Origin: Haloarculaceae archaeon
GTDB lineage: Archaea > Halobacteriota > Halobacteria > Halobacteriales > Haloarculaceae
Reading direction: 5' to 3'
Assembly (NCBI GenBank): GCA_042217365.1
Contig: JBDGST010000082.1
Location: 1-33,472 of the forward strand
DNA length: 33,472 bases
The stretch's first letter is position 1. Each line of letters opens with the position of its first letter. The notes beneath the pieces were generated by a model, which was not told the DNA's origin, did no database searches, and saw only the letters and a program-made list of their open reading frames with translations. Both the position numbers and the translations under genes were made by a program. Below, piece after piece: positions 13,757 through 31,881 of this stretch.

Positions 13757-13779
13757 GCGCAGGAGGTCATGACTTGACA

Positions 13780-16235: not shown

Positions 16236-16988
16236 ATGAGTACGGACGAGGAGTCGCTGTACGTGGGGGTCGACTGGGCGGGCGAGTCGTGGGTCGCCGT
16301 CGCGTTCGACCGTTCGGGGTTCCACGAGGCCGCCGTGTTTCCCGGGATCGGCGACCTCTGGGTGCACTACGAGGAACGCGCGGAAGCCGTCCTCGTCGAC
16401 GTGCCGGTCGGTCTCGTCGACGAGGGGGACCCGGTCCGGGCGTGCGACGAACTGGCGCGGGAGGTCGTCGGTTCGCGCGCGAGCGCCGTGACCACCCCGC
16501 CGGTCAGGGAAGCGACGCGCAAGCGCCGCTATCCCGCGGCCAAGCGGGTCAACGAACGCAAGGGCGGCCGCGACCTCTCGAAGCAGGCCTTCGCCATCAG
16601 CGACGGGATCGCCGCGGTCGACGAACTCCTCCAGAACGTCCCCGAAGCCCGGCAGGCGTTCGCCGAGTCCCACCCCGAAGTCTGTTTCCGCGCGTTCGCG
16701 GGCGAGCCCCTCGACCACTCCAAGCGCGTTGCCGCCGGCTACGCCGAGCGGATGCGGACGCTCGCCGGACACGACAGGGACGCCCCGCCCGCGGTCCAAG
16801 CCGCCGCCGAGGCCACCGCCGGCCACGAAGTCGCCGTCGACGACGTGCTCGACGCGATGGCCCTGGCCTACACCGCCCGCCCCGGGCCCGGGGACCTCCG
16901 TTCGCTCCCCGCGGACCCGCCCACCGATTCCGAGGGCCTGCCGATGCGGATCGTCTACCGCGCCGCCGAGCCCCTGGTCGAGGAGTGA
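16236..16988 (+). CDS. DUF429-family protein (predicted RNase H-like nuclease)
   Basis: N-terminal LYVGVDWAGESWVAVAFD (GxDxA motif of DUF429) plus conserved HPEVCFRAF block. Confidence 0.65.
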   Translation: MSTDEESLYVGVDWAGESWVAVAFDRSGFHEAAVFPGIGDLWVHYEERAEAVLVDVPVGLVDEGDPVRACDELAREVVGSRASAVTTPPVREATRKRRYPAAKRVNERKGGRDLSKQAFAISDGIAAVDELLQNVPEARQAFAESHPEVCFRAFAGEPLDHSKRVAAGYAERMRTLAGHDRDAPPAVQAAAEATAGHEVAVDDVLDAMALAYTARPGPGDLRSLPADPPTDSEGLPMRIVYRAAEPLVEE

Positions 16989-17090
16989 CCGCGCCCCGGG
17001 AACTGTCGCCCCGCGGCGACGGAACCCGGAACCGTCGTTTGGCGGTCCCTACCGTCGCGGTATTCGGTGCGTAGGTACTGTCGGTGGCAC

Positions 17091-17100
17091 AATAGTTATT
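17091..17100 (+). promoter_or_regulatory. TATA-like box (AATAGTTATT), ~29 nt upstream of ATG 17125
   Basis: Only AT-rich decamer in the interval, at leaderless-promoter spacing. Confidence 0.35.
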
Positions 17101-17124
17101 CACTGCCGAGGTGTATTAGAGTCC

Positions 17125-17460
17125 ATGACAGATAGGACACTGACACACCAGCTCGTCCTCCTCGGCATCGCGGAGCTCCGCGAACAGGGAGAAACTCCGG
17201 CCCACGCGGGGGAGATCCGTCGAGTGTGTCGCGACAAACTCGACGGCGTCGACGGCGACCTCGTCGGGACGCCCACGGAAGCCGAGATAGCACGGGCGCT
17301 CAACGAACTCGAAGTCGACGGGCTCGTGGAGGGGATCCGCGGCGACCGCTCGGTCGCCGGCAAGGGTCGACCCGACTACGACCTGGCCGTCGACCCGACA
17401 GCCATCCACGACGAGATCACCGACGACGACCGCCTCGAACCGATCGCAAACCGGGGGTGA
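17125..17460 (+). CDS. Winged-helix transcription-regulator-like protein (111 aa)
   Basis: ATG 17125 (MTDRTLTHQLVLLGIAELREQGETPAHAGEIRRV ... ALNELEVDGLVEG), a PadR/MarR-like wHTH pattern. The track's 16729 start lies inside the previous gene. Confidence 0.5.
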   Translation: MTDRTLTHQLVLLGIAELREQGETPAHAGEIRRVCRDKLDGVDGDLVGTPTEAEIARALNELEVDGLVEGIRGDRSVAGKGRPDYDLAVDPTAIHDEITDDDRLEPIANRG

Positions 17461-17539: not shown

Positions 17540-18313
17540 TCAGGAGAGTTCGGCGTCGCAGGCCGGGCAGACCCGGACGCGCGCCGGTATCTCGGTCCCG
17601 CAGTACCTGCAGAACTTCGTGTCCCCGGCGTCCGGCTTCCGATCGCCTCGACACGCGGGGCACTCCTCGCCGGTGTAAGTCCGCTCGTGCTCCTCGCAGT
17701 ACTCCCTGGTGTCCGAGTCGCTCCCGGCGCCGTCCGCGGAGCCGTCGTCCGCCGTCGCGACTTTCGACCGGTTGACGACGCTGTCGTCGACGGTGACCTC
17801 GCGCCCGTCTTTGACCGCCGACCCCTTCCCGGCTCCGTCGCCGGTCGCGGACCCGATCTCCGAGCGGTTGACGACGCTGTCGCGGACCTCGGTCCGGTTT
17901 TCGACCTTGTTCCCGGCGACGTAATCGCCGCCGCGGACCTCGACGCGCGCGTCGCGCTGGACTTCGAGTTTCAGCGTCGTCTGGTACCCGATCTCGATCG
18001 TCGCGTCGCGGCGGACCCGCTCGACGTGTCCCTCCCCGATATCGGTCTCGTCCCGGTTCGTCCGGACGATGACCCCGTTGGTGTTGTTGCGGTTCCGGAC
18101 TTCGAGGCAGTCGTCCCGGGCGTTCAGGACGACCGGCGCCGTGCCGTTTTTCTTCCGGGACACGGTCGCGTCGGCCACGCCGAGCCGGTAGATCTCGTCC
18201 CCCTGTGCGGCCAGGACCTCCTGTGTATCTCCCGGGTCGCGGTAGACTTCGGTCTCCGACTCGACCGGCACTTCGGCTGACTCCGTCCCCACGACCGAAA
18301 GATAACCCCTCAT
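17540..18313 (-). CDS. Zinc-ribbon protein with beta-strand-rich repeat region and two DSVVNRS motifs (paralogue of 28396..29028)
   Basis: 257 aa with alternating-pattern repeats (TLKLEVQRDARVEVRGGDYVAGNKVENRTEV), RDSVVNRSEIG and DDSVVNRSKVA, then C-terminal YCEEHERTYTGEECPACRG and FCRYCGTEIPARVRVCPACDAEL (double zinc ribbon). Confidence 0.6.
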   Translation of the reverse strand: MRGYLSVVGTESAEVPVESETEVYRDPGDTQEVLAAQGDEIYRLGVADATVSRKKNGTAPVVLNARDDCLEVRNRNNTNGVIVRTNRDETDIGEGHVERVRRDATIEIGYQTTLKLEVQRDARVEVRGGDYVAGNKVENRTEVRDSVVNRSEIGSATGDGAGKGSAVKDGREVTVDDSVVNRSKVATADDGSADGAGSDSDTREYCEEHERTYTGEECPACRGDRKPDAGDTKFCRYCGTEIPARVRVCPACDAELS

Positions 18314-18463
18314 TACTCGGTATGAGTCAGATCATCGGGGAAATAGGTTTCCCTCCCCGAAACACTCCCCCGGCGGGCGTGCTCTCCGCCCGGTCCCGCT
18401 TCGGTTCCGGGCGGCCGCCCGGCCGTCGGTCCCCTCGCGGGTGCCTGTCCAATCACCGGTCGG

Positions 18464-19222
18464 TCACCCCGACTCCGCCCGCTGGTACAGCCGTTTCGTC
18501 CGCTCGGCCAGCCGGTCGACCCGGTCGCGCCGCTCGGCGTCCAGTTCCCCGTCGGTCGGCACCACTTCGAGCTGCTCGACCAGCGCGTCGAGGTCCGCCC
18601 GCACGTCGGCGTACGCGTCGTCGTCGACCGGATGCTCCCGGACGTAGTCGCGCAGTTCGGCGGCGCGCCTGTGACAGGCCTCGGCGGACTCGCCGGCCGC
18701 AGTCTGGAGGTGCTCGGCCAGCGAGGCGGCCAGGTAGTCGTCCCCGTCGTCGCCCCCGTCGGCGGGAGCGGCTTCCTCGACGTCCGTGAGCCGGCGGCGC
18801 GCGCGCTCGCGGACCGCCTCTGGCGTCGCGTCGGTCGCCAGCTCCGACAGCGTCTCGCGGATCTCGGCGACGCGCTCGTCCGGTGCGTCCCTGGCGAACT
18901 CCCGGAGCCGGTCGATCGCGTCCAGCCGGTCGTCTTTGAACGTTCCGTCGCGCGCGAGCGCGGCGAACGCCGGGACGACCACGCCGGCGGCGCCGTCGGG
19001 GTCGGATTCGAAACACTCCCGGAGCTTCTCGCGTGCGAGGTCGCGCTCGGCCCGCCCGGTCGCGTCGAGCGCGACCTCCCGGAGCGCTTCGAGCGCCGCT
19101 CGCTTGCCCTCCGGCCCGGCGTCGGGGAACGCGCGGGCGAGCTCCTCGATCGCCTCCTCGCGGTCCCGCGAGTACGGCGAGTCCAGCGCCGTCTCGCGGT
19201 GGGTCCGTATCGCCTCGTTCAT
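18464..19222 (-). CDS. HEAT-like alpha-helical repeat protein (252 aa)
   Basis: Start ATG 19222 (MNEAIRTHRET). Repeated ~30-aa helical units (EEAIEELARAFPDAGPEGKRAALEALREVAL ..., RLDAIDRLREFARDAPDERVAEIRETLSEL ...). Start is 31 nt downstream of the SPFH gene stop. Confidence 0.55.
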   Translation of the reverse strand: MNEAIRTHRETALDSPYSRDREEAIEELARAFPDAGPEGKRAALEALREVALDATGRAERDLAREKLRECFESDPDGAAGVVVPAFAALARDGTFKDDRLDAIDRLREFARDAPDERVAEIRETLSELATDATPEAVRERARRRLTDVEEAAPADGGDDGDDYLAASLAEHLQTAAGESAEACHRRAAELRDYVREHPVDDDAYADVRADLDALVEQLEVVPTDGELDAERRDRVDRLAERTKRLYQRAESG

Positions 19223-19253
19223 CGTTCGGCCTCCTCGCGTCGTGTGTCTTCGG

Positions 19254-21095
19254 TCATAGTTCGGTCCCGCAGTCGGTACAGAACGCCTGGTCGGCCGGCA
19301 CGGCCGCGCCACACGACGGACAGGCCACGGAGCCGCCCGACCGGTCGGCCCCGCCGCCCTGGTCGCCGCTACCGCTCTCTTCGCCACCGCCGCTCCGGCC
19401 TCCGCTCTCGCCGCCACCGCCGCCCGGGCCGTCGCCGCCGCCCTGGACGATGGTCGTGTCCCCGGAGTCGCTCGACCCGCCCGCGTCGGGGACGATGACG
19501 TTGTCGGAGGTGTCCTCGGCGGCTGCCTCGGCCGTGTCGCCCATGTTGTCCATCGCGGACTCGCTGGTCTCCTGGACGCGGTCCATCGCGTCCTCCATGG
19601 TCTCGCGCAGTTCCTCGCGGAACTGTTCCTGGTCCTCGACGCGCTGGCGCTCGGTCTCGGCGTCGTGGGCCTCCTGGCGGGCTTTCGCGAGTTCGTCGCT
19701 CTCCTTGGCGCCCAGGGCTTCGAGCTGTTCCGGCGTGAGGTCCTCGGCCTTCTCGATCTCCGCGAGCTCCGCCACCGCCTCGTCGACGCTGTCCATGCTC
19801 GCCAGCGTGTCGAGGTCGACCTCGTCGCGGGCCTGGAGGCGCTCTCTCTCCACCTCGACCTCGTGTTCCTCGCGGCGCATCTCGATGTCCTGCTCGCGCT
19901 CCTCGACGTCCAGGCCGTCCATGTCCTTGCGCTTTTTCGCGTCCAGCAGGTCGTCTATCTCCGACATGTCCTGCTCGTGTTCTATCTCCCGGCGCTCGGC
20001 CTCGGCCTCCGTGCGCGTGGTCTTTTTCTCCTGGTCGTGCTCGACCTCCTCGCGCTCGGCCTCGTGGCGGTGGCGCCGCCGCATGTCGTCTTTCTCGTGG
20101 GACTGCTCGATCTCCTGGGTCTCCAGCTCGTGGTCGGCGCTCTGCCGGGCCGACCCCCGCCTGACCCGCTGGCGCTGGTCGTGGACCACCCGCTCGGTCT
20201 CGCGTTCGGTCTCGCGCTTGTCCAGCTCCAGCTCGTCGTCGGCGATGTCCTGCTTCTCACGCTCGATCTCGACCTCCTTGCGCCGCTCGCGGACCTCGTC
20301 GAGGTCGTCGCCGTACTCGAACGAGAGGAGGTCCACGAGCCGGAGCCCGTTGCGCTCCAGGGTCCGGCGCAGTTCGTGCTCGACGTCCTGCCGGAGGTCC
20401 CGTTTCAGCTCGCGGTTCCCGTAGAGGTCGTCGCGCTCGTAGCCGCTGATGGTCGCCTCTAACTCGTCGCGGATCGCGTCGCCCAGCGTCGCGGTCAGCG
20501 TCTCGGCGGTGACGGCGTCGCGGGTGCGCAGCATCTCCGTGAAGAACAGCTGCGGGTCGTCGACCTCGATCACGAGTTCGACCCCGACGCTGACGAGGTA
20601 GTCCGTCGCCGTCCGGACGTCGTCGACCTCGACCGTGACGGCGGTGGTCCCCTCGTTGACGAGAAAGACCGCGTAGTCCTGGCCCCGCCTGAAGTCCTTC
20701 AGCTTCCGGCCCAGCGAGTCGAGGGTGTGCTTGCCGGGGCCGAGTGTCCCCTTGATCTCGCCGTTCTCCAGCAGGAGCGCCCGGTTGCCCGCCTCGATCT
20801 TCACTTCCTCTTTCTGTCGCAGGCGCGCGAGGAACCCCCGAGCCTGCAGGTCGCTCCCGGTGGCGCGGCGGGCGAACTCGTACTCGCGCAGCTGCAACAC
20901 GTCGCTGTCGCCGGCCCGGGCGGCGTCCGGGTCCGCCCCGCCGGTCAGCTCCGCTCCGCACTCGGCGCAGTAGGCGGCGTCGGCCGGGTTGTCAGCGCCG
21001 CAACTCGGACAGCTCGCCGCCAGCGACGTCCCGCACTCCCCGCAGAACCGGGCGTCGGCCGGCGCCGTCGCGCCGCAGCTCGGACACTGCATCAC
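19254..21095 (-). CDS. Triple zinc-ribbon SPFH/band-7 (flotillin-like) protein with ~330-aa E/R/D-rich coiled coil
   Basis: N-terminal CPSCGATAPADARFCGECG plus CPSCGADNPADAAYCAECG (double zinc ribbon). SPFH-like core (VKIEAGNRALLLENGEIKGTLGPGKHTL ... VFLVNEGTTAVTVEVDDVRTATDYLVSVGVELVIEVDDPQLFF ... RELKRDLRQDVEHELRRTLERNGLRLVDLLSFEY). Long charged coiled coil, then a G/S-rich linker and C-terminal CPSCGAAVPADQAFCTDCG. Confidence 0.7.
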   Translation of the reverse strand: MMQCPSCGATAPADARFCGECGTSLAASCPSCGADNPADAAYCAECGAELTGGADPDAARAGDSDVLQLREYEFARRATGSDLQARGFLARLRQKEEVKIEAGNRALLLENGEIKGTLGPGKHTLDSLGRKLKDFRRGQDYAVFLVNEGTTAVTVEVDDVRTATDYLVSVGVELVIEVDDPQLFFTEMLRTRDAVTAETLTATLGDAIRDELEATISGYERDDLYGNRELKRDLRQDVEHELRRTLERNGLRLVDLLSFEYGDDLDEVRERRKEVEIEREKQDIADDELELDKRETERETERVVHDQRQRVRRGSARQSADHELETQEIEQSHEKDDMRRRHRHEAEREEVEHDQEKKTTRTEAEAERREIEHEQDMSEIDDLLDAKKRKDMDGLDVEEREQDIEMRREEHEVEVERERLQARDEVDLDTLASMDSVDEAVAELAEIEKAEDLTPEQLEALGAKESDELAKARQEAHDAETERQRVEDQEQFREELRETMEDAMDRVQETSESAMDNMGDTAEAAAEDTSDNVIVPDAGGSSDSGDTTIVQGGGDGPGGGGGESGGRSGGGEESGSGDQGGGADRSGGSVACPSCGAAVPADQAFCTDCGTEL

Positions 21096-21177
21096 CGATC
21101 ACCCCCGTCCGCGGCGGACGTGCGGTCCAGTCGGTCGTGTGCCGTTTCGACAGTGTCGTGTCGCTGTCCGAACATGG

Positions 21178-21447
21178 TTATCTGAGCCCCTGTAAGTAGT
21201 CCTGTCGCCCGGCGAACGAGCGTTCGAGCGCGGCGACGGCGTCCTCGCCCGCCTCGTAGAGCCGGTCGGACGCGTCGTCGAGCGCGCGCTTCGCGTCGTC
21301 GAGGTCTCGCTCCAGCTTCTCGCGGATCGCCCGGTCGGTCGCCGCCCGCGCCTCGTGGGTCCGGTAGTCGTACCCCGGGACGACCCGCTTGAGGAGCGCG
21401 CTGTTCGTCGACAGTTTCCCCTCGTCGACGTCGTCGAGTAGACTCAT
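21178..21447 (-). CDS. Small helical protein (89 aa), hypothetical
   Basis: High GC3. Lies between the AAA and SPFH genes on the same strand. TATA-like ACTATACT about 50 nt upstream. Confidence 0.45.
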   Translation of the reverse strand: MSLLDDVDEGKLSTNSALLKRVVPGYDYRTHEARAATDRAIREKLERDLDDAKRALDDASDRLYEAGEDAVAALERSFAGRQDYLQGLR

Positions 21448-21635
21448 GCGCCGTGACCTCCCGGACTCGGTCTGACCATTATCCGTGTTCCTGCAGTATA
21501 GTGTTTGGCGTCAGTTCGGCCCGCTGACGTGCTCGCCGAGGCCCGCCCCCCGTCAGTCGGCGGACCCTCGTCGGGCCGGCGGTGGCCGGGGGACGCGCCC
21601 GCGACTCGCCCGGTTCGGTCTCGTCCCGCCATCGG

Positions 21636-22802
21636 TCAGCCCTCCCAGTCGGCGAGGCTGGACTCGGTTTCCTCGATGGCCGCCTCGAGGTGGTCCTGCG
21701 TGATGCGTCGTATCTCGTCGGCCTCGCGGGCGTCCTGGAGGGCCTTGCGGGCCGCGTCCGTCGCGACCAGTTCCATGTCGCTGGCGGAGTACCCCTCGGT
21801 CCGGTCCTCGATGGTCTCCCAGTCTATCTCCTCGGTGAGGACCGGCCTGTCCCGGAGGTGGACCCGGAGGATGGCGCTGCGGGCTGCGGGGTCCGGCGGC
21901 GGCACCTCGATCCGCTCGTCGAACCGGCCCGACCGCTTGATGGCGTCGTCGACCGACTCGAGCAGGTTCGTCGCCGCGAACACGACCACGTCCTCGCCCT
22001 GGATGTCGCTCAACTCGGTCAGGATCTGGTTGACCATCTGGCGCTCGCTCTGGGTCTTCTGTGCGCCCCCGGAGCGCTGCCCGGCGATGGCGTCGACCTC
22101 GTCGACGAAGACGAGACACGGCTGGTTGTCCCGCGCGACCGCGAACAGGTCCGCGACGTTGTCCGCGGCCTCGCCGACCAGCGACGAAGTCAGGTCAGAC
22201 GGCGTCACCTCGACGAAGTTGTAGTCGAGCTTGCCCGCGAGCGCACGCGTGACGTACGTCTTGCCCGTTCCCGGCGGCCCGTAGAGGAGGACGCCGTTCA
22301 CGACGCCGAGGTCGTACTCCTCGTAGAGCTCCGGGCGTTCGAGCGGGTCGACGACCTTCTCGATGAGGGTCTGCTTGAGGTCGCTCATCCCGCCGACGTC
22401 GTCGAAGTCCAGGTCCGGCGGGTCCTCCAGGTACTCGCTCGCGTCGGCGACGTCCCCCTCGCCGTCCCCGTCCGCGTCGACCTCGTCGGGACTGTCCGCG
22501 TTCGACCCGCCTGTCGCGCCGGCGTCGGCGTTCGCGCTCGACCCGTCACGACCCGTTCCTCCCGACGCCCGTTCGGCGAGCGTCTCGGCTGCCTCCCGCA
22601 GGTTCGCCGCCAGGTCGCGTCGCTTCTTCGCGACGGCGTCCCGGGACTCCAGACCGGCTATCTCGTCGAGCAGTTCGGCGCACTTCCGGTAGTGCGTGGC
22701 GGCCTCGTCCGGTTCGTCGCGCTCGCGGGCCTTCTCGGCGCGCTCGCGGTGGCGCCGGTAGTCGTCTTTCAGGATCTCCCTGTGGGCGTCGTCTCCCAGC
22801 AT
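21636..22802 (-). CDS. MIT-domain AAA+ ATPase (Vps4/CdvC-like)
   Basis: N-terminal three-helix region (EAATHYRKCAELLDEIAG ...) resembling a MIT domain. Single AAA cassette with Walker A GPPGTGKT, Walker B CLVFVDEVD, second region of homology and arginine finger (SGRFDERIEV). Start is 22 nt downstream of the Snf7-like gene stop. Confidence 0.85.
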   Translation of the reverse strand: MLGDDAHREILKDDYRRHRERAEKARERDEPDEAATHYRKCAELLDEIAGLESRDAVAKKRRDLAANLREAAETLAERASGGTGRDGSSANADAGATGGSNADSPDEVDADGDGEGDVADASEYLEDPPDLDFDDVGGMSDLKQTLIEKVVDPLERPELYEEYDLGVVNGVLLYGPPGTGKTYVTRALAGKLDYNFVEVTPSDLTSSLVGEAADNVADLFAVARDNQPCLVFVDEVDAIAGQRSGGAQKTQSERQMVNQILTELSDIQGEDVVVFAATNLLESVDDAIKRSGRFDERIEVPPPDPAARSAILRVHLRDRPVLTEEIDWETIEDRTEGYSASDMELVATDAARKALQDAREADEIRRITQDHLEAAIEETESSLADWEG

Positions 22803-22824
22803 AGGTGAAAGACCGACCAGCCCG

Positions 22825-23487
22825 TCAGAGGTCGTCTATCGACACTTCTCCGGTGTCGATGTCGTCGTCGATGTCGATTCCCTCCTCGATGCTGACCTCC
22901 GATTCGGCCTCGATGTCGACCTCCTCGGCGGACATCTCGGAGGTGGCGATCTGCTCCATCACTTCCTCCTCTTCGCCGACTTCCATCTCCAGCTGGTCGT
23001 CCATGATCGGGACGTCCAGTGCGTCCTGGATCTCCTGCATGTCCTCCATTTCGATGCCGAACGACGCCATCCGCTCCATGATCTCGCTCTGGATCTCCTG
23101 GGCGTTGGCGTCACTCATCGCCTCGTCGATCGCGATGTCCTCGTCGTCGTGCAGGTCCATGATGTCCCGCATGCCCTGGATGCTGAGCACCGTGCCGAGC
23201 TTGACGTTGTTCGCCCGGTACTTCTTCTTCTTGATGGCGTATTTCTTCTTCTCGAACTTGGCCTTCTGCGCGTACTTCTTGCGCTGCAGCTCGCCCTCCT
23301 GGGCGCCCTCCTGGAGCAGTTTCCTGTACTTGCGCCGGTGTTTGTCCATCTCCTGCTCGAGCTTCTTCGAGCGGTGCTCCAGCTTCGAGATGTCCTTCCG
23401 GAGCTCCGTGTCGCTGTAAACGCTCTCTTCGAGCAGTGACTCGCCCGTACCGTTGAACCGTTCCTGAACCCAGTTGCGCAGTTCCAT
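22825..23487 (-). CDS. ESCRT-III / Snf7-like protein (PspA/Vipp1/ESCRT-III superfamily), 220 aa
   Basis: Basic N-terminal half (KKYAQKAKFEKKKYAIKKKKYRANNVKLGTVLSIQ) aligns by eye with CHMP4/Snf7 alpha1-alpha2 (KRAALQALKRKKRYEKQLAQIDGTLSTIEFQ). DIAIDEAMSDANAQEIQSEIMERMAS matches Snf7 alpha4-alpha5 (MDIDKVDELMQDIADQQELAEEISTAIS). Very acidic C-terminal tail ending ...EVSIDDL. High GC3 codons; the plus-strand overlapping ORF is S-rich junk. Confidence 0.7.
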   Translation of the reverse strand: MELRNWVQERFNGTGESLLEESVYSDTELRKDISKLEHRSKKLEQEMDKHRRKYRKLLQEGAQEGELQRKKYAQKAKFEKKKYAIKKKKYRANNVKLGTVLSIQGMRDIMDLHDDEDIAIDEAMSDANAQEIQSEIMERMASFGIEMEDMQEIQDALDVPIMDDQLEMEVGEEEEVMEQIATSEMSAEEVDIEAESEVSIEEGIDIDDDIDTGEVSIDDL

Positions 23488-23511
23488 GGTTGTATCGTTT
23501 GCCAGTCTGCT

Positions 23512-23521
23512 GTTATTATTG
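23512..23521 (-). promoter_or_regulatory. TATA-like box (minus-strand CAATAATAAC), ~28-30 nt upstream of ATG 23487
   Basis: Only AT-rich stretch in the 100-bp intergenic region; leaderless spacing. Confidence 0.4.
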
Positions 23522-23586
23522 TTTGGACCGTCCGTCGCCCGGCTGGCCGTCGACCGCCCGCCGTTTCCCGGCCGGTCTGTGACCCG

Positions 23587-23871
23587 CTACTCGATCTCCG
23601 GTTTCGCTATCGATAGCGTCCCGACGATCCCCAGCGCCGCGCCGACGCCGGCGACCACGATCAGGAGACGCTTGTCCTCGAAGGCCAGGTCGAACAGCCG
23701 GGCCCCGAGGGTCGCCTCCGCGTAGACGACCGCCGCGCCGATCACCAGCCCGCCGACCGACCCGTAGACCACCCGCTGCTCCATCAGGCTGTACACCCCG
23801 ACGACCAGACCGACGCCCAGCACGACGTTCGCCAGTAACGCGAGCGCCATCGCCCAGAGTTCGAGAGGCAT
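23587..23871 (-). CDS. Small membrane protein (94 aa, 3 TM)
   Basis: LWAMALALLANVVLGVGLVVGVY, GGLVIGAAVVYAEATLG, LLIVVAGVGAALGIVGTL. Stop is 100 nt upstream of the Snf7-like gene. Confidence 0.5.
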   Translation of the reverse strand: MPLELWAMALALLANVVLGVGLVVGVYSLMEQRVVYGSVGGLVIGAAVVYAEATLGARLFDLAFEDKRLLIVVAGVGAALGIVGTLSIAKPEIE

Positions 23872-24193
23872 CTTTTGCCATCACACCGTCTGACAGATCC
23901 ATTCGTTTATAGATACATAAAGATTTGGGTCCATTAGAGGTTTGAGGGAGTCTCCAAAATGGAGGTTATCGAGAGTGGAACGAACGAAAAGTGGCGAGAA
24001 CCGTAGAGACGGGCTCGGCCGCGCAGCCGACGACTCGACGGGTTCACGCCTCTTTCGAGCGCCGGTCGGAGCCCGGGCGACCACGGCTTCGACACCCCCG
24101 AAGCCGTCGACAGCCTCGATCAGCCGCGAGAGGTACTCCGGTCGAAACTCGACGGCTGACCCCCCTATCCGCGCCGACCGGACGGCAGGGAGA

Positions 24194-24349
24194 TCACTCT
24201 TCGTAGAACAGGAAGACGAGGATCTGACTCTCCCACTGGGTGACTTCGACGTCCCGTACGTCGTAGTGTTCGTGGAAGCTGTCCAGTTGCGACTGGATCT
24301 CTTCGACGTTGTTCGTCTGGTAGTCGAATTCGAGGATTTGCGTCTGCAT
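24194..24349 (-). CDS. Small conserved-looking ORF (51 aa), not in ORF track as a separate gene
   Basis: MQTQILEFDYQTNNVEEIQSQLDSFHEHYDVRDVEVTQWESQILVFLFYEE. Almost every codon is G/C-ending, i.e. genome-typical usage despite a low-GC amino-acid composition. It is the 3' tail of the artefactual 623-aa minus-strand ORF. Confidence 0.4.
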   Translation of the reverse strand: MQTQILEFDYQTNNVEEIQSQLDSFHEHYDVRDVEVTQWESQILVFLFYEE

Positions 24350-24547
24350 AGACCGACGTCGGACGGCCGCTCCTTTGCCTTTGTGGCGCCGGGGCGCCGG
24401 GAAGTAGCCATCGCCCGGTGGCGGCTGATAGCGCGCTCGCCGACTCCCGTGGCGAAGACGGTGACGGAGTACGTTCGGGTTGACCGCGATTCCACCGATA
24501 GTAGTTGCGGGAAAAATACTTTCACAGATGGCTGATATTGGGGCTCC

Positions 24548-26098
24548 ATGGCGAAGAGGGCGCCAGGATTCATCGACGGCGGAGAAGCCGTCACGGACGA
24601 ACAGGCGCGGACCGAGATACTCGCGGGCGCGTTCGAAGAGGCGGCGGGCGGGTACTTCGAGCGTCAGGTCGAGTACGAGCAGGCGATCGCCGACGCGCGG
24701 GAGGACAGAGACGACGCCAAGCGCGCGGGGATCGCAGGCGTGATCGCGGGTCTGGTCCTCGTGGTCGCCGGGCCGCTGATGGACGTCCTGCCGGTGTCGC
24801 TGCTCGGGCTCGTCGTCGCGGCGGTCGTCGGCTATCTCAAGTACCGCGAACACGAGGCGGCGGTCGAGCGCATCGAGGACAACCGGCGTGCGCTCAGGGA
24901 GGACAGACCGGACGGGCAGGTGTCGTTCGTGTCGCAGGTCGCCGTCCCTGCGTATCTCGTCCAGTACAGCGACCGGCACATGGTCTTCGACGGGCTGAAC
25001 CAGGCGCCGCGGACCGACCTGGAACTCGCGCTGGTCGACGGCGACGCGCTCCACGGGGCGCGCGCGGACCTCGAAGAGGTCGCGGACGTCCTCGACGAGT
25101 ATCTGTCGGGCCAAGAGGTCCTCGACCCGGCGTTCGCACAGGAGGTCTGCCCGGGGATCACCGACCACCGGCGCCTCGAAAAGCCGGTCACCGACCGGAT
25201 GGACCGGATGACGGCGATCGCCCGGGACGTTGACGTCGAGTCGATATCGGTCAACGTCCACGCGAACGACGGGATCGCCCGCAGCGTTCGGACGCTCAGC
25301 CGCGACGGGCTCCTGCGAGGGGACGGCGACCTGCCGGTCGTCGAGACCGAACAGTCGATGGCCGAGTGCGAGCAACTCGTCACAGATATCAGGGGCGTCG
25401 AGCAGCAGGCGGTCAGCGGCGACATGCTCGACCAGGCGCGGGACCACCGCGACGCGGTCGTAGAGGTCGCCGACGAGTTCGCCGAACCGCTGGGCACGAA
25501 CGCGGAGACCGTGGCGGAGCACTTCGACGCCCACGCCGGCGCAGTCGAGGACAGCACCGCCAAGTTCGTCTGCGAGGAGTGCCTCGCCGAGGAACTCGCG
25601 GCGGTCGACGACGAACTCGACCTGGTGGCGGAGATCCTCAGCGAGGAGACGGGGAGTTTCGGCGTCGCGCTGAGCGACCCCGACCTCGACGAGATCACGG
25701 TCGACGGCGAGGGGTCGTTCACCGACCAGGTCAGGGCCGACATCGAGGAGCACATCCCGGTACTCGAAGACGAACTCCGCGAGGCGTACAACACGCTCGG
25801 TGACATGGGTCCCGACGGCGACTACTGCATGAAACACGAGAGCGTCGAGACGGTCCCGGTCGCCCGCGACGGTCACCTGTTCGGCGAGGTGTGGCGGAGC
25901 CTCTACTACGAGTTTCGGGGACCGATCATGGACAGCGTCGAGGACCTCGAACGCGAATCCGAGGAAGTCAGACAGAACAAGGAACAGAAGATGATCGACC
26001 TCGCCCAGTACGAACAGATCAAGGACTCGGCCGAGCGGGATTTCCACGCCGTCAAGGCCGACCACGACGCCGCCGAAACCATCGAACGGAGGCTGTGA
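24548..26098 (+). CDS. Membrane-anchored hypothetical protein (516 aa, TM hairpin near N-terminus, large acidic cytoplasmic domain)
   Basis: GIAGVIAGLVLVVAGPLMDVLPVSLLGLVVAAVVGYL forms two TM helices. The remainder is acidic with no recognisable motif. TGA overlaps the next ATG (26096-26100). Confidence 0.6.
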   Translation: MAKRAPGFIDGGEAVTDEQARTEILAGAFEEAAGGYFERQVEYEQAIADAREDRDDAKRAGIAGVIAGLVLVVAGPLMDVLPVSLLGLVVAAVVGYLKYREHEAAVERIEDNRRALREDRPDGQVSFVSQVAVPAYLVQYSDRHMVFDGLNQAPRTDLELALVDGDALHGARADLEEVADVLDEYLSGQEVLDPAFAQEVCPGITDHRRLEKPVTDRMDRMTAIARDVDVESISVNVHANDGIARSVRTLSRDGLLRGDGDLPVVETEQSMAECEQLVTDIRGVEQQAVSGDMLDQARDHRDAVVEVADEFAEPLGTNAETVAEHFDAHAGAVEDSTAKFVCEECLAEELAAVDDELDLVAEILSEETGSFGVALSDPDLDEITVDGEGSFTDQVRADIEEHIPVLEDELREAYNTLGDMGPDGDYCMKHESVETVPVARDGHLFGEVWRSLYYEFRGPIMDSVEDLERESEEVRQNKEQKMIDLAQYEQIKDSAERDFHAVKADHDAAETIERRL

Positions 26099-27141
26099 TG
26101 TCGGGGAACCAGAACGTCAGGGTCTCGGTCGACGAGCGGAAGATCGGCAAAGCCGCCGGATCGGCCGTCTCGGGCGAACTGAAAGGCGAACTCAGCTCGA
26201 TCAAGAGCAACACGAGCGAGACGGCCGACCAGGTCCGCGAGATGAAACGAGAAGTGAGCGCCCTCCAGCGGCGCGTCGAGAGCCTCGAGGAGCGGATGAC
26301 CGAGATCGAGCGGACCAAGGCCGAGGCCCAGCGGGAGGCCACCGAATCCATCAAGGACGAACTCGAACGGCAGCTGGAGGAGAAAAAGCGGCAGTTCGAG
26401 GAGAAAAAGCGGGACGTCCTCGGCGACTACCAGTCGAGCATCCGGCGGCTGAAAGACCGGTTCGTCAACTCGATCCCCGGGCAGAGCGAGGGGTTCGAGC
26501 GGGTGACCGAGGAGTTCGATCGAGCGGTCGAACTCCGGGACTCGGTCGTCGAGGAGGCACGGCGGCTCGGGAGCCACGGCGCGGCGGCCGTCCACGAGTA
26601 CCGCCGCAGACACGTCGAGGAGTCCCGGACGGCCTTTACCGACGCCATCGACGACTTCCTCGCCGACCGCCGGGAGACCGCGAACACGATCGACTCGCTC
26701 CAGACGGCGGTGCCCGGCGTCGACGGCAACGAGCGAGTGCACGTCCCGTTCTGGGTGGTCGGGATCGAGCGCGACGGCAGGGAAGAGGTCTACGTGTTGC
26801 CGATCCAGACGCGGGCGGAACCCGAAGCCGCGCCGACCGCCCGGGCGCCGTACGCGTCGTACCTCAAGCCCCACGACACCCACTACTACGGCGACTGGAC
26901 GGACGCGGTCGAGGCGTACGTCCGCCAGGACCACGTGCGCGACAGGCTCGCCGCCGACGACCCGACGTTCGCCGACCCCGACGTCCTCCGGGACCTCCCC
27001 GGCGTCCACGACAGGTTCGTGGACGCGCTCACGGAGTTCGAGTTCGGGGACCGGCGAACGACCGGGTCGACGACCCGACGGGCTGGGCAAGCACAGCGGC
27101 AGCGGCAAGCCGCTCGAACAGGGGCACAGAACGATGACTGA
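26098..27141 (+). CDS. Coiled-coil protein (347 aa)
   Basis: N-terminal heptad-rich region (VSALQRRVESLEERMTEIERTKAEAQREATESIKDELERQLEEKKRQFEEKKRD) followed by a globular domain. 8-nt overlap with the next gene. Confidence 0.6.
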   Translation: MSGNQNVRVSVDERKIGKAAGSAVSGELKGELSSIKSNTSETADQVREMKREVSALQRRVESLEERMTEIERTKAEAQREATESIKDELERQLEEKKRQFEEKKRDVLGDYQSSIRRLKDRFVNSIPGQSEGFERVTEEFDRAVELRDSVVEEARRLGSHGAAAVHEYRRRHVEESRTAFTDAIDDFLADRRETANTIDSLQTAVPGVDGNERVHVPFWVVGIERDGREEVYVLPIQTRAEPEAAPTARAPYASYLKPHDTHYYGDWTDAVEAYVRQDHVRDRLAADDPTFADPDVLRDLPGVHDRFVDALTEFEFGDRRTTGSTTRRAGQAQRQRQAARTGAQNDD

Positions 27142-28399
27142 GGAAGTACTGGGCGCCATCACGTCCGACAAGGTCGAGACCGACAACACGAACTTCGCGA
27201 CGCTGAAGGCCGACCAGACCTGCGAGGAGGCGCTGATCCCCCGGGACAACGCGGTCAGACAGCTCAACTGGCAGGTCACCCTTGAGAAAGGGTCCATCTA
27301 CAACCCCCAGGAGGACGTCGGCGTCTACGCCCAGGAGGTCGACTGCAAGTACGGGGTGCAGGTCGACGGCACGGTCTTCGGACGCGACGCCGTCTCCGTC
27401 GAACACGGGGGCGCGATGCACTCGGCCGCGAGCGACGAGGGCGAGGCGGCGCCGGTCATCGGGGCCCGGGTCCTCGGCTCGGTCGTCTCCGACGGGTCCG
27501 TCGAGGTGGTCTCGCCGGACTCGAAACTCGACGACTGGGAGCCCAGGCCGGTCACCGTCTACGGCGACCTCGTCGGCGGCCACGTCTCCATCGAGGAACC
27601 GACCGTCGTCTACGGGAACGTCCTCGCCGAGCAGATGCTCTGGGTCGACGCGCCGACGGTCGTGTTCGGCGACGTCCGCTCGGAGGGATCCCTCGAGGCG
27701 ACCGACCTGTTCGCGTTCTCGATAACCGCCCGCGACGAGGTCACCCTCGGCGAGCGCGTCGTCACGGTCAACCCCGTGGTCCGGTCCGACGAGGGGACGA
27801 TAACCCTCGTCGACGACGTCGCGGTCTTCGACTCGGCCACGCTCGCCCGCGTCGGGGACGCCCACGACGTCGACAGCGTCGCGGTCGGCCCGTGGGTGCT
27901 GGACGAGGAGACCGTCTGGGAGGGCGACCGGCTGGTCCCCGCCGACGTCATCGACCACGGTGACGGAGAACTCGCAACCCGGGCGTGGCGGACGGTGTCG
28001 GAACCCGATAGCGAGTACGCGTACGTCCAGTCGCTGCTACAGCGCCACGTCGCCGAGTTCCGGCGCGATCCCCCCGACATCGAGCAGTTCCGGTACGGCG
28101 GCCTCGTCAGCGTGGGCGAGAGCAGCCCCGACGACGACGGCGGCGTCACCGTCGAACACCACGGCGAGGGCGACGTCGTGCTTGGCGACCAGGAGAAGGA
28201 GGTGGAGGAAGAGGACCTGACGACCATCGACAACAGCGTGACGGACGTCACCGAGACGAAGACCGTCCACGACGAGCGCACGACCATCGAGGACAGCGTC
28301 CTCAACCGGTCCGACGTCGGGGGGGTCGGCGACGCGGACGGGAGCGACGGCGAAGCGGCCGACGGGACCCAGATGCCGGCGGAACCGCGGGAGGAGTGA
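27134..28399 (+). CDS. Bactofilin-like (polymer-forming beta-helix) protein with C-terminal DSVLNRS module (421 aa)
   Basis: Repeated windings of the form VTVYGDLVGGHVSIEEPTVVYGNVLAEQMLWVDAPTVVFGDVRSEGSLEA match the bactofilin/DUF583 pattern x-V-x-G-D/N-V-x-A. C-terminal block GDVVLGDQEKEVEE ... DERTTIEDSVLNRSDVG is shared with the next gene. Confidence 0.6.
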   Translation: MTEEVLGAITSDKVETDNTNFATLKADQTCEEALIPRDNAVRQLNWQVTLEKGSIYNPQEDVGVYAQEVDCKYGVQVDGTVFGRDAVSVEHGGAMHSAASDEGEAAPVIGARVLGSVVSDGSVEVVSPDSKLDDWEPRPVTVYGDLVGGHVSIEEPTVVYGNVLAEQMLWVDAPTVVFGDVRSEGSLEATDLFAFSITARDEVTLGERVVTVNPVVRSDEGTITLVDDVAVFDSATLARVGDAHDVDSVAVGPWVLDEETVWEGDRLVPADVIDHGDGELATRAWRTVSEPDSEYAYVQSLLQRHVAEFRRDPPDIEQFRYGGLVSVGESSPDDDGGVTVEHHGEGDVVLGDQEKEVEEEDLTTIDNSVTDVTETKTVHDERTTIEDSVLNRSDVGGVGDADGSDGEAADGTQMPAEPREE

Positions 28400-29028
28400 C
28401 CGTGGGCTACTGCGAAGACCACGACCGCGTGTATCGCGGCGCCGAGTGCCCCGACTGCGCCGGTTCGGCCGCGGGAAGCGACGCCGGACGGACCGCGGAC
28501 CCGGCGACGGGGCGGAACACCGGGGCCGGCGCGGACGGGGACGACCCCCGGTCGAGTGACGCCCGGGACGCGTCCAGGGACCCCGCGAACGTCCGCGAGC
28601 ATGTCGAGGACGGCGTCGCGGACGCGCTCGGGGACGTCGACGTCGACGTCGAAGACGGGGACGTGGTCGTCGGCGACCAGGAGAAGACCGCCGAGAAGAC
28701 CGTCCGGACCGAGATCGACGACAGCACCGCCGACGTCACCGAGGAGACGACGACCCGCGACGAGCGGACCACCGTCGAGGACAGCGTCCTCAACCGCTCG
28801 ACGGTCGAGGGCGACGCCGACGTCGAGGACAGCGTCCTCAACCGGTCGGACGTCGGAGACGGGGCCGGCGCCGAGGACTCCGCAGTCGAGCGGTCGAGCG
28901 TAGGCGGTGAGTCGGGCGGAGGAGGGGCAGAAACCGGAAGCCACGAAACGGAGTTCTGTATCTACTGCGGGGCGGAAGTCCCCGCCGGGAGCGAAACCTG
29001 CCCCCAGTGCGGGGAGTCCCTGTCGTAG
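28396..29028 (+). CDS. Zinc-ribbon protein with tandem DSVLNRS repeats (210 aa), paralogue of 17540..18313
   Basis: GTG start overlapping the previous stop (GTGA). N-terminal YCEDHDRVYRGAECPDCAG (compare YCEEHERTYTGEECPACRG in the 17540 gene). GDVVVGDQEK ... DERTTVEDSVLNRSTVEGDADVEDSVLNRSDVGDGAGAEDSAVERSSVGG. C-terminal FCIYCGAEVPAGSETCPQCG. Confidence 0.6.
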   Translation: MTVGYCEDHDRVYRGAECPDCAGSAAGSDAGRTADPATGRNTGAGADGDDPRSSDARDASRDPANVREHVEDGVADALGDVDVDVEDGDVVVGDQEKTAEKTVRTEIDDSTADVTEETTTRDERTTVEDSVLNRSTVEGDADVEDSVLNRSDVGDGAGAEDSAVERSSVGGESGGGGAETGSHETEFCIYCGAEVPAGSETCPQCGESLS

Positions 29029-31338: not shown

Positions 31339-31881
31339 TCATTGTTGGCTATTCGCGTAGTCCGCCAGTTCGGTCTCGAAGAAGTCCGCGAGGAACGACG
31401 GCGCGGGCGGGTAGCCGTCCACCCGGACCGTCACCGTCGTCGTTCCCCCGTCCCCGTCCCCGTCGACCCCGTAGGTGACGGTCGCTCGGCCCTTCTTCGT
31501 GTAGACCTCGTACTCGTTTCGCGCCGCCGACTGCAACACCGCCTTCTTCTTCGAGAGCATGTACTCGACGAACGACTCGACGGCGTCCGCCTGCGCGTCG
31601 ACCGATTGCTCGACCGTGTAGCGTTCGGTCGTGACGTCCGGTTCGACCGGTTCGAGCCGGTACGAGGCGACCTGGTCGGCGGGCACCTTGCCGACGAGGT
31701 CCTCGTAGAGCTCGTCGTGGTCGACGCCGTCGGCGACCCGGACCAGGCCCGACGGCTTCTCCACGTCGCCGTCGTCCCAGTTGTTGAACAGGTACTCGAC
31801 CCGCTTTCGCTCGGCGTCGTCCTCGTAGTCGACGACGAACAGGTACCGGTCGTCCCCGTCTGTCTGGTCGTTCCGTGTCAT
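31339..31881 (-). CDS. Hypothetical protein (180 aa) with Cas2/VapD-like N-terminal strand pattern
   Basis: Start ATG 31881 (MTRNDQTDGDDRYLFVVDYEDDAERKRVEYLFNNW ...), which by eye resembles the Cas2 beta1-alpha1 signature (LVLVFYDISDERRRARLSELL). The 50-nt gap to the 664-aa gene on the same strand suggests an operon. Confidence 0.45.
   Translation of the reverse strand: MTRNDQTDGDDRYLFVVDYEDDAERKRVEYLFNNWDDGDVEKPSGLVRVADGVDHDELYEDLVGKVPADQVASYRLEPVEPDVTTERYTVEQSVDAQADAVESFVEYMLSKKKAVLQSAARNEYEVYTKKGRATVTYGVDGDGDGGTTTVTVRVDGYPPAPSFLADFFETELADYANSQQ

Follow-up and report, generated by a model that had tools for sequence, protein, structure and literature searches.

The closest described counterpart of the locus analysed here is the Halo_FHA ESCRT system of Halobacteria, with Halomicrobium mukohataei pHmuk01 as an example locus (Makarova et al., 2024, mBio, PMC10936438). 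In the text and table parts of that paper covered here, Halo_FHA systems are proposed to be phosphorylation-driven, and ESCRT systems are described as typically recruiting partners via short tails, with tail-peptide docking as the norm. Judged by sequence comparison, the cluster in our window (the whole 33.5-kb stretch of DNA that was analysed) is a variant of this system. The two have in common an arCOG07402-type ESCRT-III gene preceding a gene for a Vps4-like ATPase, an FHA domain homologous to arCOG13166, and Ser/Thr kinases and PP2C phosphatases, which in our case are found in related loci. They differ in that the FHA protein of the window carries repeats of a module that we call M, a CHCC finger and a Zn ribbon instead of a CdvA-like helical C-terminus, and in that the cluster includes an SPFH-Zn-ribbon protein, a type that the covered parts of the paper give only for Meth_adaptin systems. 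The window cluster further adds a 252-aa helical protein, coiled-coil proteins and an operon with a beta-helix protein; neither a beta-helix/bactofilin component nor M is mentioned in those same parts. The window showed no arCOG09748/arCOG08177-like genes.

The minus-strand array of the cluster begins with a 94-aa membrane protein that is conserved in related loci (TM94, 23587..23871), and continues with a 220-aa ESCRT-III-like protein (22825..23487), a Vps4/CdvC-like AAA+ ATPase with an MIT-like N-terminus (21636..22802), p89, an SPFH/Band-7 protein (19254..21095), a conserved alpha-helical protein of about 252 aa (18464..19222) and, last, gene A. The ESCRT-III-like protein had no Pfam or PDB sequence match, and its assignment comes from the alignment of its family profile to the arCOG07402 ESCRT-III of H. 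mukohataei (hhalign 95.6%, E=1.1e-8, 180 columns). The ATPase matches Pfam AAA (1.9e-37), NCBIfam CdvC over residues 10-382 (E=1.2e-45, under the equivalog cutoff) and the H. mukohataei Vps4 (28% identical, E=1e-31, aligned from residue 9). The cluster-conserved SPFH protein (Pfam Band_7, 35.9 bits against a cutoff of 23.6) contains a coiled coil, two N-terminal Zn ribbons and one C-terminal Zn ribbon, and also matches Pfam DZR and Zn_Ribbon_1. The 252-aa helical protein, whose family is unassigned and which had no Pfam match, is conserved by tblastn in 10 related loci among those compared and usually lies directly upstream of A. On the plus strand, genes for a 516-aa two-TM protein (TM516, 24548-26098) and a 347-aa coiled-coil protein (CC347, 26098-27141) open an operon and, in related loci, always precede genes B and C. 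Genes for a 664-aa coiled-coil protein (29295-31289) and a 185-aa protein (31339-31896), both on the minus strand beyond C, are likewise conserved beside the cluster in most related loci (tblastn), and A, B and C thus do not bracket the whole unit, as a sequence-only reading of the window had proposed. Its description of the region as cytoskeleton-like was roughly right but imprecise; the region is an ESCRT-III/Vps4/SPFH/FHA cluster with a beta-helix protein among its members.

That reading had also pointed to a short motif, DSV[LV]NRS, in three genes, and all the copies were found where it had placed them. Gene A (17540..18313, minus strand) contains RDSVVNRSEIG (aa 144-154) and DDSVVNRSKVA (aa 176-186), gene B (27134..28399, plus strand) EDSVLNRSDVG (aa 386-396), and gene C (28396..29028, plus strand) EDSVLNRSTVE, EDSVLNRSDVG and a degenerate EDSAVERSSVG; in a six-frame translation of the whole window these five copies and the degenerate one are confined to the three genes. 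Because the surrounding sequence is acidic and of low complexity, such a motif could in principle be a chance effect of composition in acidic haloarchaeal proteins rich in Ser, Thr and Val, and homology would then not extend past its seven residues. This explanation is already refuted for practical purposes. The back-translated DNA pattern had 5 matches in the window and none in 100 dinucleotide-preserving shuffles, and the proteins align significantly well beyond the motif (BLASTP E=3e-8 over 115 aa for A and C, 4e-6 with 31/50 identical for B and C, 5e-4 for A and B), as do the profiles of the B and A modules (E=3.8e-12, probability 97.6%). Moreover, the motif is kept in orthologues of all three families, with positions invariant across genera, which removes what the sequence-only reading had itself named as grounds for rejection. 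The CHCC finger noted as common to A and C is homologous on its own (12/19 identical, E=7e-7), and both proteins end in the expected FC-YCG...CP-C ribbon. M, the C-x2-H-x8-CPxC finger and the C-terminal Zn ribbon are therefore homologous modules that sit in differing order, and the domain shuffling suggested earlier is genuine.

DSV[LV]NRS forms the best-conserved end of M, a discrete module of about 54 residues that begins with GD[VI]VxGxQxK, continues with a variable number of heptads of the form xDxST(T/E)V and ends with T-x-V-x-D-S-V-V-N-R-S-x-[IV]-G, this terminal unit being repeatable after Gly/Asp-rich spacers. Orthologues from Halosimplex, Haloplanus, Salarchaeum and Salinarchaeum preserve M (mean column identity 69%), and the linkers that flank it are unconserved. 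It falls outside all Pfam, NCBIfam and PADLOC families, in agreement with the earlier failure to name one. A profile of M retrieved just 37 proteins from 1.84 billion (1.84e9) representatives, 19 of them at E<=1e-10, and essentially all belong to five architectures: FHA, M and zinc fingers (A); beta-helix and M (B); CHCC finger, M and Zn ribbon (C); TM, M and Zn ribbon, encoded in a Haloplanus cluster (L007:4154-5020); and HEAT, M and Zn ribbon (P0130). The modules are confined to clusters of this type. With at least these five architectures, shuffling reaches further than the sequence-only reading had seen. M is nearly always succeeded by a C-terminal Zn ribbon; P0097 is a natural B protein with extra DSVV-type units and such a ribbon. 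The presence of M on the co-encoded A, B and C, on the TM and HEAT proteins and on P0097 suggests, as its likeliest role, that of a shared protein-protein assembly or docking module of a rare haloarchaeal ESCRT-type membrane-remodelling system, with M segments pairing or binding a common core subunit. We hold this view tentatively, at a probability of roughly 45%.

The 257-aa protein A consists of an FHA domain (aa 1-120, 17954..18313), a shortened M with two DSVVNRS units, the CHCC finger and a C-terminal Zn ribbon. The FHA fold is bona fide (AlphaFold2 pLDDT ~96; hhalign 97.4%, E=1.3e-11 to the arCOG13166 FHA of H. mukohataei), and its TVSR and NG signatures align with GarA. The start and first unit of M (GGDYVAGNKVENRTEVRDSVVNRSEIG, aa 128-154, 17852..17932) have a pLDDT of ~43 and are followed by the second unit (aa 174-186, 17756..17794). 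The confidently predicted finger (YCEEHERTYTGEECPACRG, aa 205-223, 17645..17701) has C206, H209, C218 and C221 conserved in at least 90% of the A-family alignment and P219 invariant. The ribbon (FCRYCG...CPAC, aa 234-252, 17558..17614) matches Pfam Zn_Ribbon_1 with 21 bits (E=2.9e-4), under the 25-bit cutoff, and 22/24 family members match. The Pfam models PF13240 (Zn_Ribbon_1) and PF12773 (DZR) include the C-terminal FCxYCG...CPxCG ribbons of A and C, and the SPFH ribbons are of the same type; they describe the ribbon only, and M and the N-terminal CHCC finger fall outside them. ArnA of Sulfolobales, a Zn ribbon and FHA regulator (PDB 5a8i), has the domain order opposite to that of A, lacks M and the CHCC finger, and unlike A lies in a context of archaellum and DNA-damage regulation.

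An FHA domain in cis to Thr-rich repeats raises another possibility, namely that M is a multi-site Ser/Thr phospho-acceptor whose heptads (T-x-x-D or T-x-V-x-D) are phosphorylated by Hanks-type kinases, read by the A-type FHA domain and erased by PP2C. Such a region would be comparable to the N-terminal ETTS of GarA or the SDT/SCD clusters of eukaryotes, and M in A might bring about autoinhibition or head-to-tail oligomerisation. The likeness to GarA/OdhI-type proteins is one of analogy only, and the Thr-rich segment of A differs in being C-terminal, repeated and found also on non-FHA proteins. Consistent with such a role, the Thr at position -4 from the D of DSV never varies (T141 in A, module position T40 in B and C), M is predicted to be non-globular, as is usual for FHA ligands, and phosphorylation has been proposed to drive Halo_FHA systems in the covered parts of PMC10936438. 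A has 62 homologues and lies in or near an equivalent cluster at L009, L013 and L015-L018; PP2C directly adjoins A-type genes in L013, L016 and L017 and lies two genes away in L018, and Pkinase genes flank them in L001-L003, L009, L015, L017 and L018. However, none of the window genes scanned encodes a kinase or PP2C, the canonical beta3-beta4 Arg of FHA domains was looked for in A and not identified, and the most conserved positions of M (the starting G, D, V, G, Q and K; D and V in DSVV) are not phosphorylatable. Furthermore, the extra units of the window gene C have no Thr (DADVEDSVLNRS), and B and C still carry M in Haloplanus and Salarchaeum clusters whose surroundings (+/-10 kb) include no A-type gene; neither genus is represented among the 62 matches to A. 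We consider a phospho-acceptor role unlikely.

Protein B (421 aa) is predicted by AlphaFold2, confidently at residues 10-316, to form a bactofilin-like beta-helix followed by a small helical domain and a low-confidence tail that contains M (aa 344-397, GEGDVVLGDQEK...EDSVLNRSDVGG, 28163..28324; pLDDT ~30). Its 38 homologues come from Halosimplex, Haloplanus, Salarchaeum and Halobaculum, and it is carried by just 4/185,579 species genomes. G346, D347, G351, Q353, D366, S368, D380 and T383 are invariant in 25 orthologues, and D387, S388 and V389 reach at least 90% conservation. The bactofilin model (PF04519) is matched by 4/25 of these orthologues, at E>=0.042. Compared with bactofilins and halofilins, B is much longer (~230 beta-helix residues), with a conserved N-terminal segment, an extra helical domain and the M tail, and it has neither the head-to-head double domain of HalA nor the TM domain of HalB from Haloferax volcanii (PMC11459167).

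The beta-helix of B makes it pertinent to ask whether the DSVxNRS repeats themselves fold into a short beta-solenoid of hexapeptide- or bactofilin-like rungs, capping or extending the helix of B and forming small domains in A and C, as was proposed from an apparent periodicity of ~14 residues. GDVVxG looks like the rung motifs of the helix of B, and V-x-D-S-V-[VI]-x-x-x-x-[IV]-G looks like the rungs of left-handed beta-helices (Hexapep PF00132, LbH_EIF2B PF25084), the subclade variant VDDSVVGPDADVGG being the closest. Units in C recur every 16 aa, near a bactofilin rung, 6/24 A-type members match LbH_EIF2B (best E=7.7e-4), 3 match Hexapep (0.0027), and the A profile weakly matches the LbH region of GlmU; these matches, weak as they are, hint at a beta-helix-like unit. 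Nevertheless, no B or C family member matches a hexapeptide family, and the dominant period within M is 7, neither 6 nor 18, with tandem units spaced by 16 aa in C and by 32 aa in A and spacers varying from ~5 to 30 residues among orthologues. Aliphatic residues, at just one per ~7 positions, are too sparse to fill a solenoid core, and ~90 residues of helical domain and linker lie between M and the helix of B. AlphaFold2, run with 24-25-sequence alignments, gave M a pLDDT of 27-46 in A and B, every M segment falling below 50, and predicted no beta-helix for it, whereas the flanking domains, including the helix of B, exceeded 90. A self-folding solenoid is thus very unlikely. The models are of monomers, and their low values count against docking as well; M may be merely a conserved disordered region. 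In favor of docking, its conservation alternates by position (T-x-V-x-D-S-V-V) and beta-branched residues make up much of it (T 14.5%, V 14%, I 6%), from which, together with the weak hexapeptide/LbH matches of some A-type members, we infer a beta-strand character.

Gene C encodes a 210-aa protein with a CHCC finger (YCEDHDRVYRGAECPDCAG, 28408..28464), an acidic linker, M (aa 87-139) and two further DSV units (aa 140-154 and 158-171; together with M 28654..28908), and a Zn ribbon (28954..29013) that scores 28.3 bits against Zn_Ribbon_1, over the 25-bit cutoff. All 23 sequences of the family alignment share C6, H9, C18, P19 and C21 of the finger. Translation probably starts at the GTG at 28402 (MGYCEDH..., matching orthologues), 3 nt past the stop of B. 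C lies directly 3' of B in every locus examined, with a gap of 0-3 nt in Halosimplex, Haloplanus, Salarchaeum, Salinarchaeum and metagenome-assembled genomes. The local duplication proposed for B and C stands insofar as the two share a homologous block, but it is not recent, as the pair, each with its own M, is kept across at least 4 genera. M of B is 78% identical to that of its Halosimplex marinum orthologue and 63% identical to that of C in the window; orthologous copies are closer than paralogous copies of the same genome, which makes the duplication old. The M copies of B and C are nonetheless more alike within genomes (56%) than between them (49%), and only 7 of 5040 permutations match or beat the true pairing (p=0.0014; 7 pairs, related genomes). 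This same-genome signal reflects co-evolution or gene conversion, and conversion between adjacent genes could yield such a p-value without physical contact.

The strict coupling of B and C and the co-variation of their modules argue for the docking role of M, as do the ESCRT-III, Vps4 and arCOG13166-type FHA homologies, given that tail peptides are the usual means of docking in ESCRT systems (PMC10936438, parts covered). Against it weigh the small number of related pairs behind the co-variation and L015-L018, four loci that combine an A-type protein with the ESCRT core and show no B-C operon in the surrounding +/-10 kb, such that M in A cannot depend solely on B or C. This last observation would suit an extended docking peptide for one non-FHA core component, with no M-M contact. 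Candidate partners would be the MIT-like domain of the Vps4 ATPase, the ESCRT-III protein or the 252-aa helical protein, by analogy with MIM motifs or the E3B tail of CdvA. The gene for the helical protein adjoins A in the window, L013, L017 and L018, P0130 joins HEAT repeats to M, and short tails typically recruit ESCRT partners (PMC10936438, same parts). Yet M, with 54 residues and internal repeats, far exceeds known MIM/E3B motifs in length, and a direct comparison found the HEAT region of P0130 not homologous to the 252-aa protein. We regard docking of this kind as quite unlikely.

In summary, M marks a rare cluster that combines ESCRT-type membrane-remodelling proteins with a phospho-threonine reader and a bactofilin-like beta-helix protein. 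In the docking model that we favor, the system would be built on ESCRT-III, a Vps4-like ATPase, an SPFH protein and an FHA phospho-reader, and shuffling has put M behind unrelated heads (FHA, bactofilin-like beta-helix, CHCC zinc finger, membrane anchor and HEAT repeats). The M segments that separate subunits carry could then pair mutually or with one common core subunit, possibly via extended beta-strand contacts formed only in the complex. Such pairing would tether the zinc-finger adaptor C, and the FHA reader A where present, to the beta-helical scaffold B at the membrane, with the Ser/Thr kinases and PP2C found in related loci as possible regulators.

Genes A (17540-18313, minus strand), B (27134-28399, plus strand) and C (28396-29028, plus strand), which encode an FHA protein, a beta-helix protein and a zinc-finger protein, have in common a segment of about 54 residues, here called M, that ends in the motif DSV[LV]NRS. 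Every copy of this motif reported by the sequence-only reading was found in its place and none occurs elsewhere in the six-frame translation of the window, while the back-translated pattern gave five matches against none in 100 shuffles. The similarity between A and C extends well beyond the seven motif residues (E = 3e-8, and E = 7e-7 for the CHCC finger, C-x2-H-x8-CPxC, alone), B and C are identical at 31 of 50 aligned positions (E = 4e-6), A and B align at E = 5e-4, and comparison of profiles for the B tail and the middle of A gave 97.6% (E = 3.8e-12). A chance origin of the motif is excluded.

When 24 A-type, 25 B-type and 23 C-type sequences are aligned, M stands out within the non-globular regions as the stretch of highest conservation. 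It opens with G-x-G-D-[VI]-V-x-G-x-Q-x-K, continues through a variable count of heptads of the form x-D-x-S-T-(T/E)-V and closes with T-x-V-x-D-S-V-V-N-R-S-x-[IV]-G, one subclade of A having GPD in place of NRS (DSVVGPDAxVGG). M is rich in D (16%), T (14.5%), V (14%), E (12%) and S (9.5%), aliphatic residues occupy about one position in 7, and extra units are spaced 16 residues apart in C and 32 in A. We discarded the idea of N-R-S as an N-glycosylation sequon, reasoning from the cytoplasmic features of the proteins (they carry zinc ribbons and show no signal peptide) and from orthologues that have KDS, GPD or SGS. The repeats had been read as a short, autonomous beta-solenoid cap with a period of ~14 residues. 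Weak HMM matches to Hexapep (3 of 24 members, best 0.0027) and LbH_EIF2B (6 of 24, best 7.7e-4) are consistent with such a fold, but they occur in A-type members only, and no B or C member matches a hexapeptide family. Moreover, the autocorrelation peaks at a lag of 7 (class identity 0.33, with a secondary peak at 13-14) rather than at 6 or 18, hydrophobicity is low, the spacers are variable, and the AF2 prediction of the repeat region, at low confidence, gives no beta-helix for M, all of which makes a solenoid cap unlikely.

M has no model in Pfam, NCBIfam or PADLOC and none was found by PDB sequence search, in agreement with the initial statement that the motif could not be assigned to a named family. 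While a word-index search returned only three homologues of C, the family emerged through synteny and profile search: a 54-column profile of M, run against 1.84 billion representative proteins, gave 37 matches at E <= 1e-3 and 19 at E <= 1e-10, the three weakest-looking of the 37 (P0131-P0133) being unrelated low-complexity repeats. The true matches represent five architectures. Most are of the C type, with an N-terminal CHCC finger, an acidic linker, M with zero to three extra units and a C-terminal zinc ribbon; the A type joins FHA, a short M, the CHCC finger and the zinc ribbon, and the B type joins a beta-helix to M. Transmembrane helices precede M and the zinc ribbon in P0124, P0128, P0129 and a gene inside the Haloplanus pelagicus cluster (L007:4154-5020), and genuine HEAT repeats (PF13646 at 2e-11) take that place in P0130. 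Together with P0097, a B protein that carries extra DSVV-type units and a C-terminal zinc ribbon, these architectures bear out the proposed domain shuffling and show it to be wider than first seen. P0130 was considered as a fusion of the 252-aa helical protein of the cluster, but the two are not homologous, and the label "HEAT-like" for the latter is unsupported by Pfam. Two metagenomic B orthologues (P0077 and P0080) have helix-hairpin-helix domains fused after M (HHH_5, best E = 5.7e-13), which hints, as far as the sequences go, at a variant with a nucleic-acid-binding tail.

Carriers of B are few. Among 185,579 species-representative genomes they comprise only Halosimplex marinum, Salarchaeum sp. 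III, Haloplanus litoreus and an uncultured Salinarchaeum, a list that a search of proteins extends to H. pelagicus, H. halophilus and one Halobaculum genome. A viral or mobile origin was rejected, given that IMG/VR yielded nothing related to A or B, that no tRNA lies in the window and that housekeeping genes occupy its flanks. A role in anti-phage defence was likewise set aside, as the PADLOC matches are limited to generic AAA (IetA/TRIP13) and coiled-coil ones, with none for A, B or C.

Two divergent gene arrays make up the region around A, B and C in this metagenome-assembled contig, covered in full by the window (33,472 bp) and of ~70% GC, in which ABEJ40_05735 and ABEJ40_05785 are 100% identical to genes A and B, respectively. 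In order of transcription, the minus-strand array encodes a 94-aa membrane protein (23587-23871), a 220-aa ESCRT-III-like protein (22825-23487), a Vps4-like AAA+ ATPase (21636-22802), an 89-aa protein, a 613-aa SPFH/Band-7 protein with three zinc ribbons (19254-21095), the 252-aa helical protein (18464-19222) and, last, A. The plus-strand array runs from a 516-aa two-TM protein (TM516) through a 347-aa coiled-coil protein (CC347) to B and C. The open reading frame of C opens at GTG 28396, overlapping the stop codon of B, and a second GTG, at 28402, lies 3 nt after the TGA; since orthologues of C begin with MGYC or MPYC, the latter is the likelier start, and B and C are tightly coupled whichever is used. 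On the far side of C are genes for a 664-aa coiled-coil protein (29295-31289, minus strand) and a 185-aa protein (31339-31896, minus strand), whose conservation beside the cluster extends the functional unit to ~31.9 kb. A 51-aa open reading frame at 24194-24349 (minus strand), MQTQILEFDYQTNNVEEIQSQLDSFHEHYDVRDVEVTQWESQILVFLFYEE, is nested within a longer spurious frame and kept at the same spot, just upstream of and divergent from TM516, in five other loci, where identity ranges from 86% to 37%; the cluster probably encodes it as a genuine small protein. GC falls to 0.60 at 23000-24000 (about 0.70 elsewhere), across the ESCRT-III-like gene and the divergent intergenic region between the arrays, and codon position 2 of that gene has an unusually low GC of 0.26 because the sequence is rich in Lys and Glu. 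Gene A is adjoined by a DUF429 gene (16236-16988) and a small open reading frame within 16729-17460 that appears winged-helix-like by eye, and some kilobases upstream of the cluster is the gene for a DUF7093 protein whose C-terminus is a zinc ribbon (13774-14706, plus strand).

The core of the cluster is related to a published archaeal ESCRT system, Halo_FHA, which we compared through the Halomicrobium mukohataei pHmuk01 locus (PMC10936438). The ATPase matches Pfam AAA at 1.9e-37, is Vps4-like, has an MIT-like region at its N-terminus, aligns over its full length with NCBIfam CdvC (residues 10-382 on profile positions 6-352, E = 1.2e-45, below the equivalog cutoff) and is 28% identical to H. 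mukohataei Vps4 from residue 9 (BLASTP, E = 1e-31). For the 220-aa protein, which has no Pfam Snf7 match and whose profile has no PDB match, ESCRT-III homology was recovered solely by profile comparison (hhalign) with a published arCOG07402 member, WP_126967198 (95.6%, E = 1.1e-8, 180 columns); the second paralogue gave only 10.9%. The A-family profile matches the arCOG13166 FHA protein WP_012807434 by the same method (97.4%, E = 1.3e-11, 108 columns). These three homologies identify the cluster as a variant of Halo_FHA. It differs from the published system in that the C-terminus of arCOG13166 is CdvA-like and helical, without M or zinc modules, whereas the C-terminal half of A consists of M repeats, CHCC finger and zinc ribbon. 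In the parts of the source available to us, SPFH is named only for Meth_adaptin systems, Ser/Thr kinases and phosphatases are described for some Halo_FHA loci, and a beta-helix or bactofilin component is not mentioned (PMC10936438). A literature search joining bactofilin, ESCRT and archaea returned nothing relevant. M, itself undescribed, is a marker for a new form of the Halo_FHA ESCRT system.

The head of A has the 11-stranded beta-sandwich of the FHA fold; Pfam FHA is absent from the families listed for the window protein and from the 25 families most often matched across the 24 members (E <= 1), and a PDB sequence search with the N-terminal profile gave no match at E <= 10. In an alignment with GarA (sequence verified against the PDB) that has a low overall probability of 12%, the invariant S52-R53 and N79, which is at least 90% conserved and followed by G80, fall on the TVSR and NG signatures. 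The canonical beta3-beta4 Arg was not located in A, R25 being invariant but uncertain in its position in the fold. Of the B orthologues, 4 of 25 match the Bactofilin HMM PF04519 (best E = 0.042), the window protein not among them. Gene C has no predicted globular part outside its two zinc modules, and its zinc ribbon scores 28.3 bits against a 25-bit gathering cutoff (PF13240 Zn_Ribbon_1/PF12773 DZR); that of A scores 21 bits, below the cutoff, but 22 of 24 relatives match and the conservation of its four Cys is at least 90%. Short ribbons of this type (CPxCG...FCxxCG) recur three times in the SPFH protein, once each in A and C and once in a Haloplanus TM protein (L007:3352-4137), and may thus constitute another module that proteins of the system share.

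The copies of M in B and C had been taken for a local duplication. The module is 78% identical between window and H. marinum for B and likewise for C, compared with 63% between B and C within the window, so that the duplication predates these genera; the modules are paralogous and have been shuffled, as proposed, but not recently duplicated. The copies co-vary nonetheless: mean B-C identity of M is 56% in the same genome versus 49% across genomes, and the observed same-genome value is reached by only 7 of the 5040 pairings in an exact permutation of seven genome pairs. The pattern is indicative of co-evolution or gene conversion, between which the 79-83% DNA identity of the DSVLNRS-coding stretches cannot discriminate, since a strong GC3 bias limits synonymous choice.

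Searches of 13 related loci with the window proteins (tblastn) found the ESCRT core (the 94-aa membrane protein, ESCRT-III, Vps4, the SPFH zinc-ribbon protein and the 252-aa helical protein) in most, and the 664-aa and 185-aa proteins in fewer of them. The TM516-CC347-B-C operon is present in the window, Halosimplex, two species of Haloplanus, Salarchaeum, Salinarchaeum and several metagenome-assembled genomes, and was not found within 10 kb on either side of the core in L015-L018. A-type genes are located within the core or adjacent to it in the window, L009, L013 and L015-L018, ~10 kb away behind two kinases in one metagenome-assembled genome (L002/L005), and ~500 kb away amid five kinase genes in H. 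marinum (L003). A PP2C Ser/Thr phosphatase gene directly adjoins the A-type gene at L013:13417-14133, L016:10884-11615 and L017:10778-11851 and is two genes from it in L018 (13851-14564). Pkinase genes stand beside A-type genes in L001-L003, L009, L015, L017 and L018, and PQQ-beta-propeller Ser/Thr kinases flank the A-type gene at several loci other than those with PP2C; the window genes scanned include neither kinase nor PP2C.

This setting could suggest that M is a phospho-acceptor read by the FHA domain of A, the main alternative to the reading that we favour. The FHA/kinase/PP2C context, an invariant Thr in M and the precedent of GarA all speak for it, but invariant positions of M are non-phosphorylatable, and M is retained in the clusters of Haloplanus and Salarchaeum, in which no A-type gene is seen. 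We favour instead an assembly or docking module, to which we assign a probability of roughly 45%, because M is a conserved non-globular segment, rich in beta-formers and common to several unrelated, co-encoded proteins, is followed by a near-constant zinc ribbon, co-varies between B and C and lies in an ESCRT setting. Tail-mediated recruitment is usual in ESCRT-type systems. As a docking module, M would tie C, and likewise A and the TM and HEAT types where present, to scaffold protein B, to a core subunit that they share, or to both; the probable route would be intermolecular beta-strand pairing, formed only in the complex. A bolder proposal, which we consider unlikely, is that M is an undescribed heptad-periodic Thr/Asp/Val-rich domain, unfolded alone, whose intermolecular beta-assembly is switched by Ser/Thr phosphorylation and couples a bactofilin-like scaffold to the ESCRT-III/Vps4/SPFH machine. 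PQQ-kinases would then write the mark, PP2C would erase it and the FHA head of A would read it.

Haloarchaea divide with FtsZ, and their ESCRT-like clusters are sporadic. The present type, found in a handful of genera only, joins ESCRT-III/Vps4 to SPFH, a bactofilin-like beta-helix protein and an FHA/kinase/PP2C layer. For annotation, M provides a new sequence family for proteins now called hypothetical or named after the zinc ribbon alone. The finding would gain interest if M were a phospho-regulated link between the beta-helical scaffold and ESCRT-III: phospho-regulation of M would make it a prokaryotic counterpart of eukaryotic FHA-ligand clusters, and a phosphorylation-switched assembly would amount to a composite ESCRT-cytoskeleton system, of which we know no example in any domain of life. 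As the sole element common to otherwise unrelated subunits, M is a concrete bait and deletion target for interactions in an archaeal ESCRT variant.
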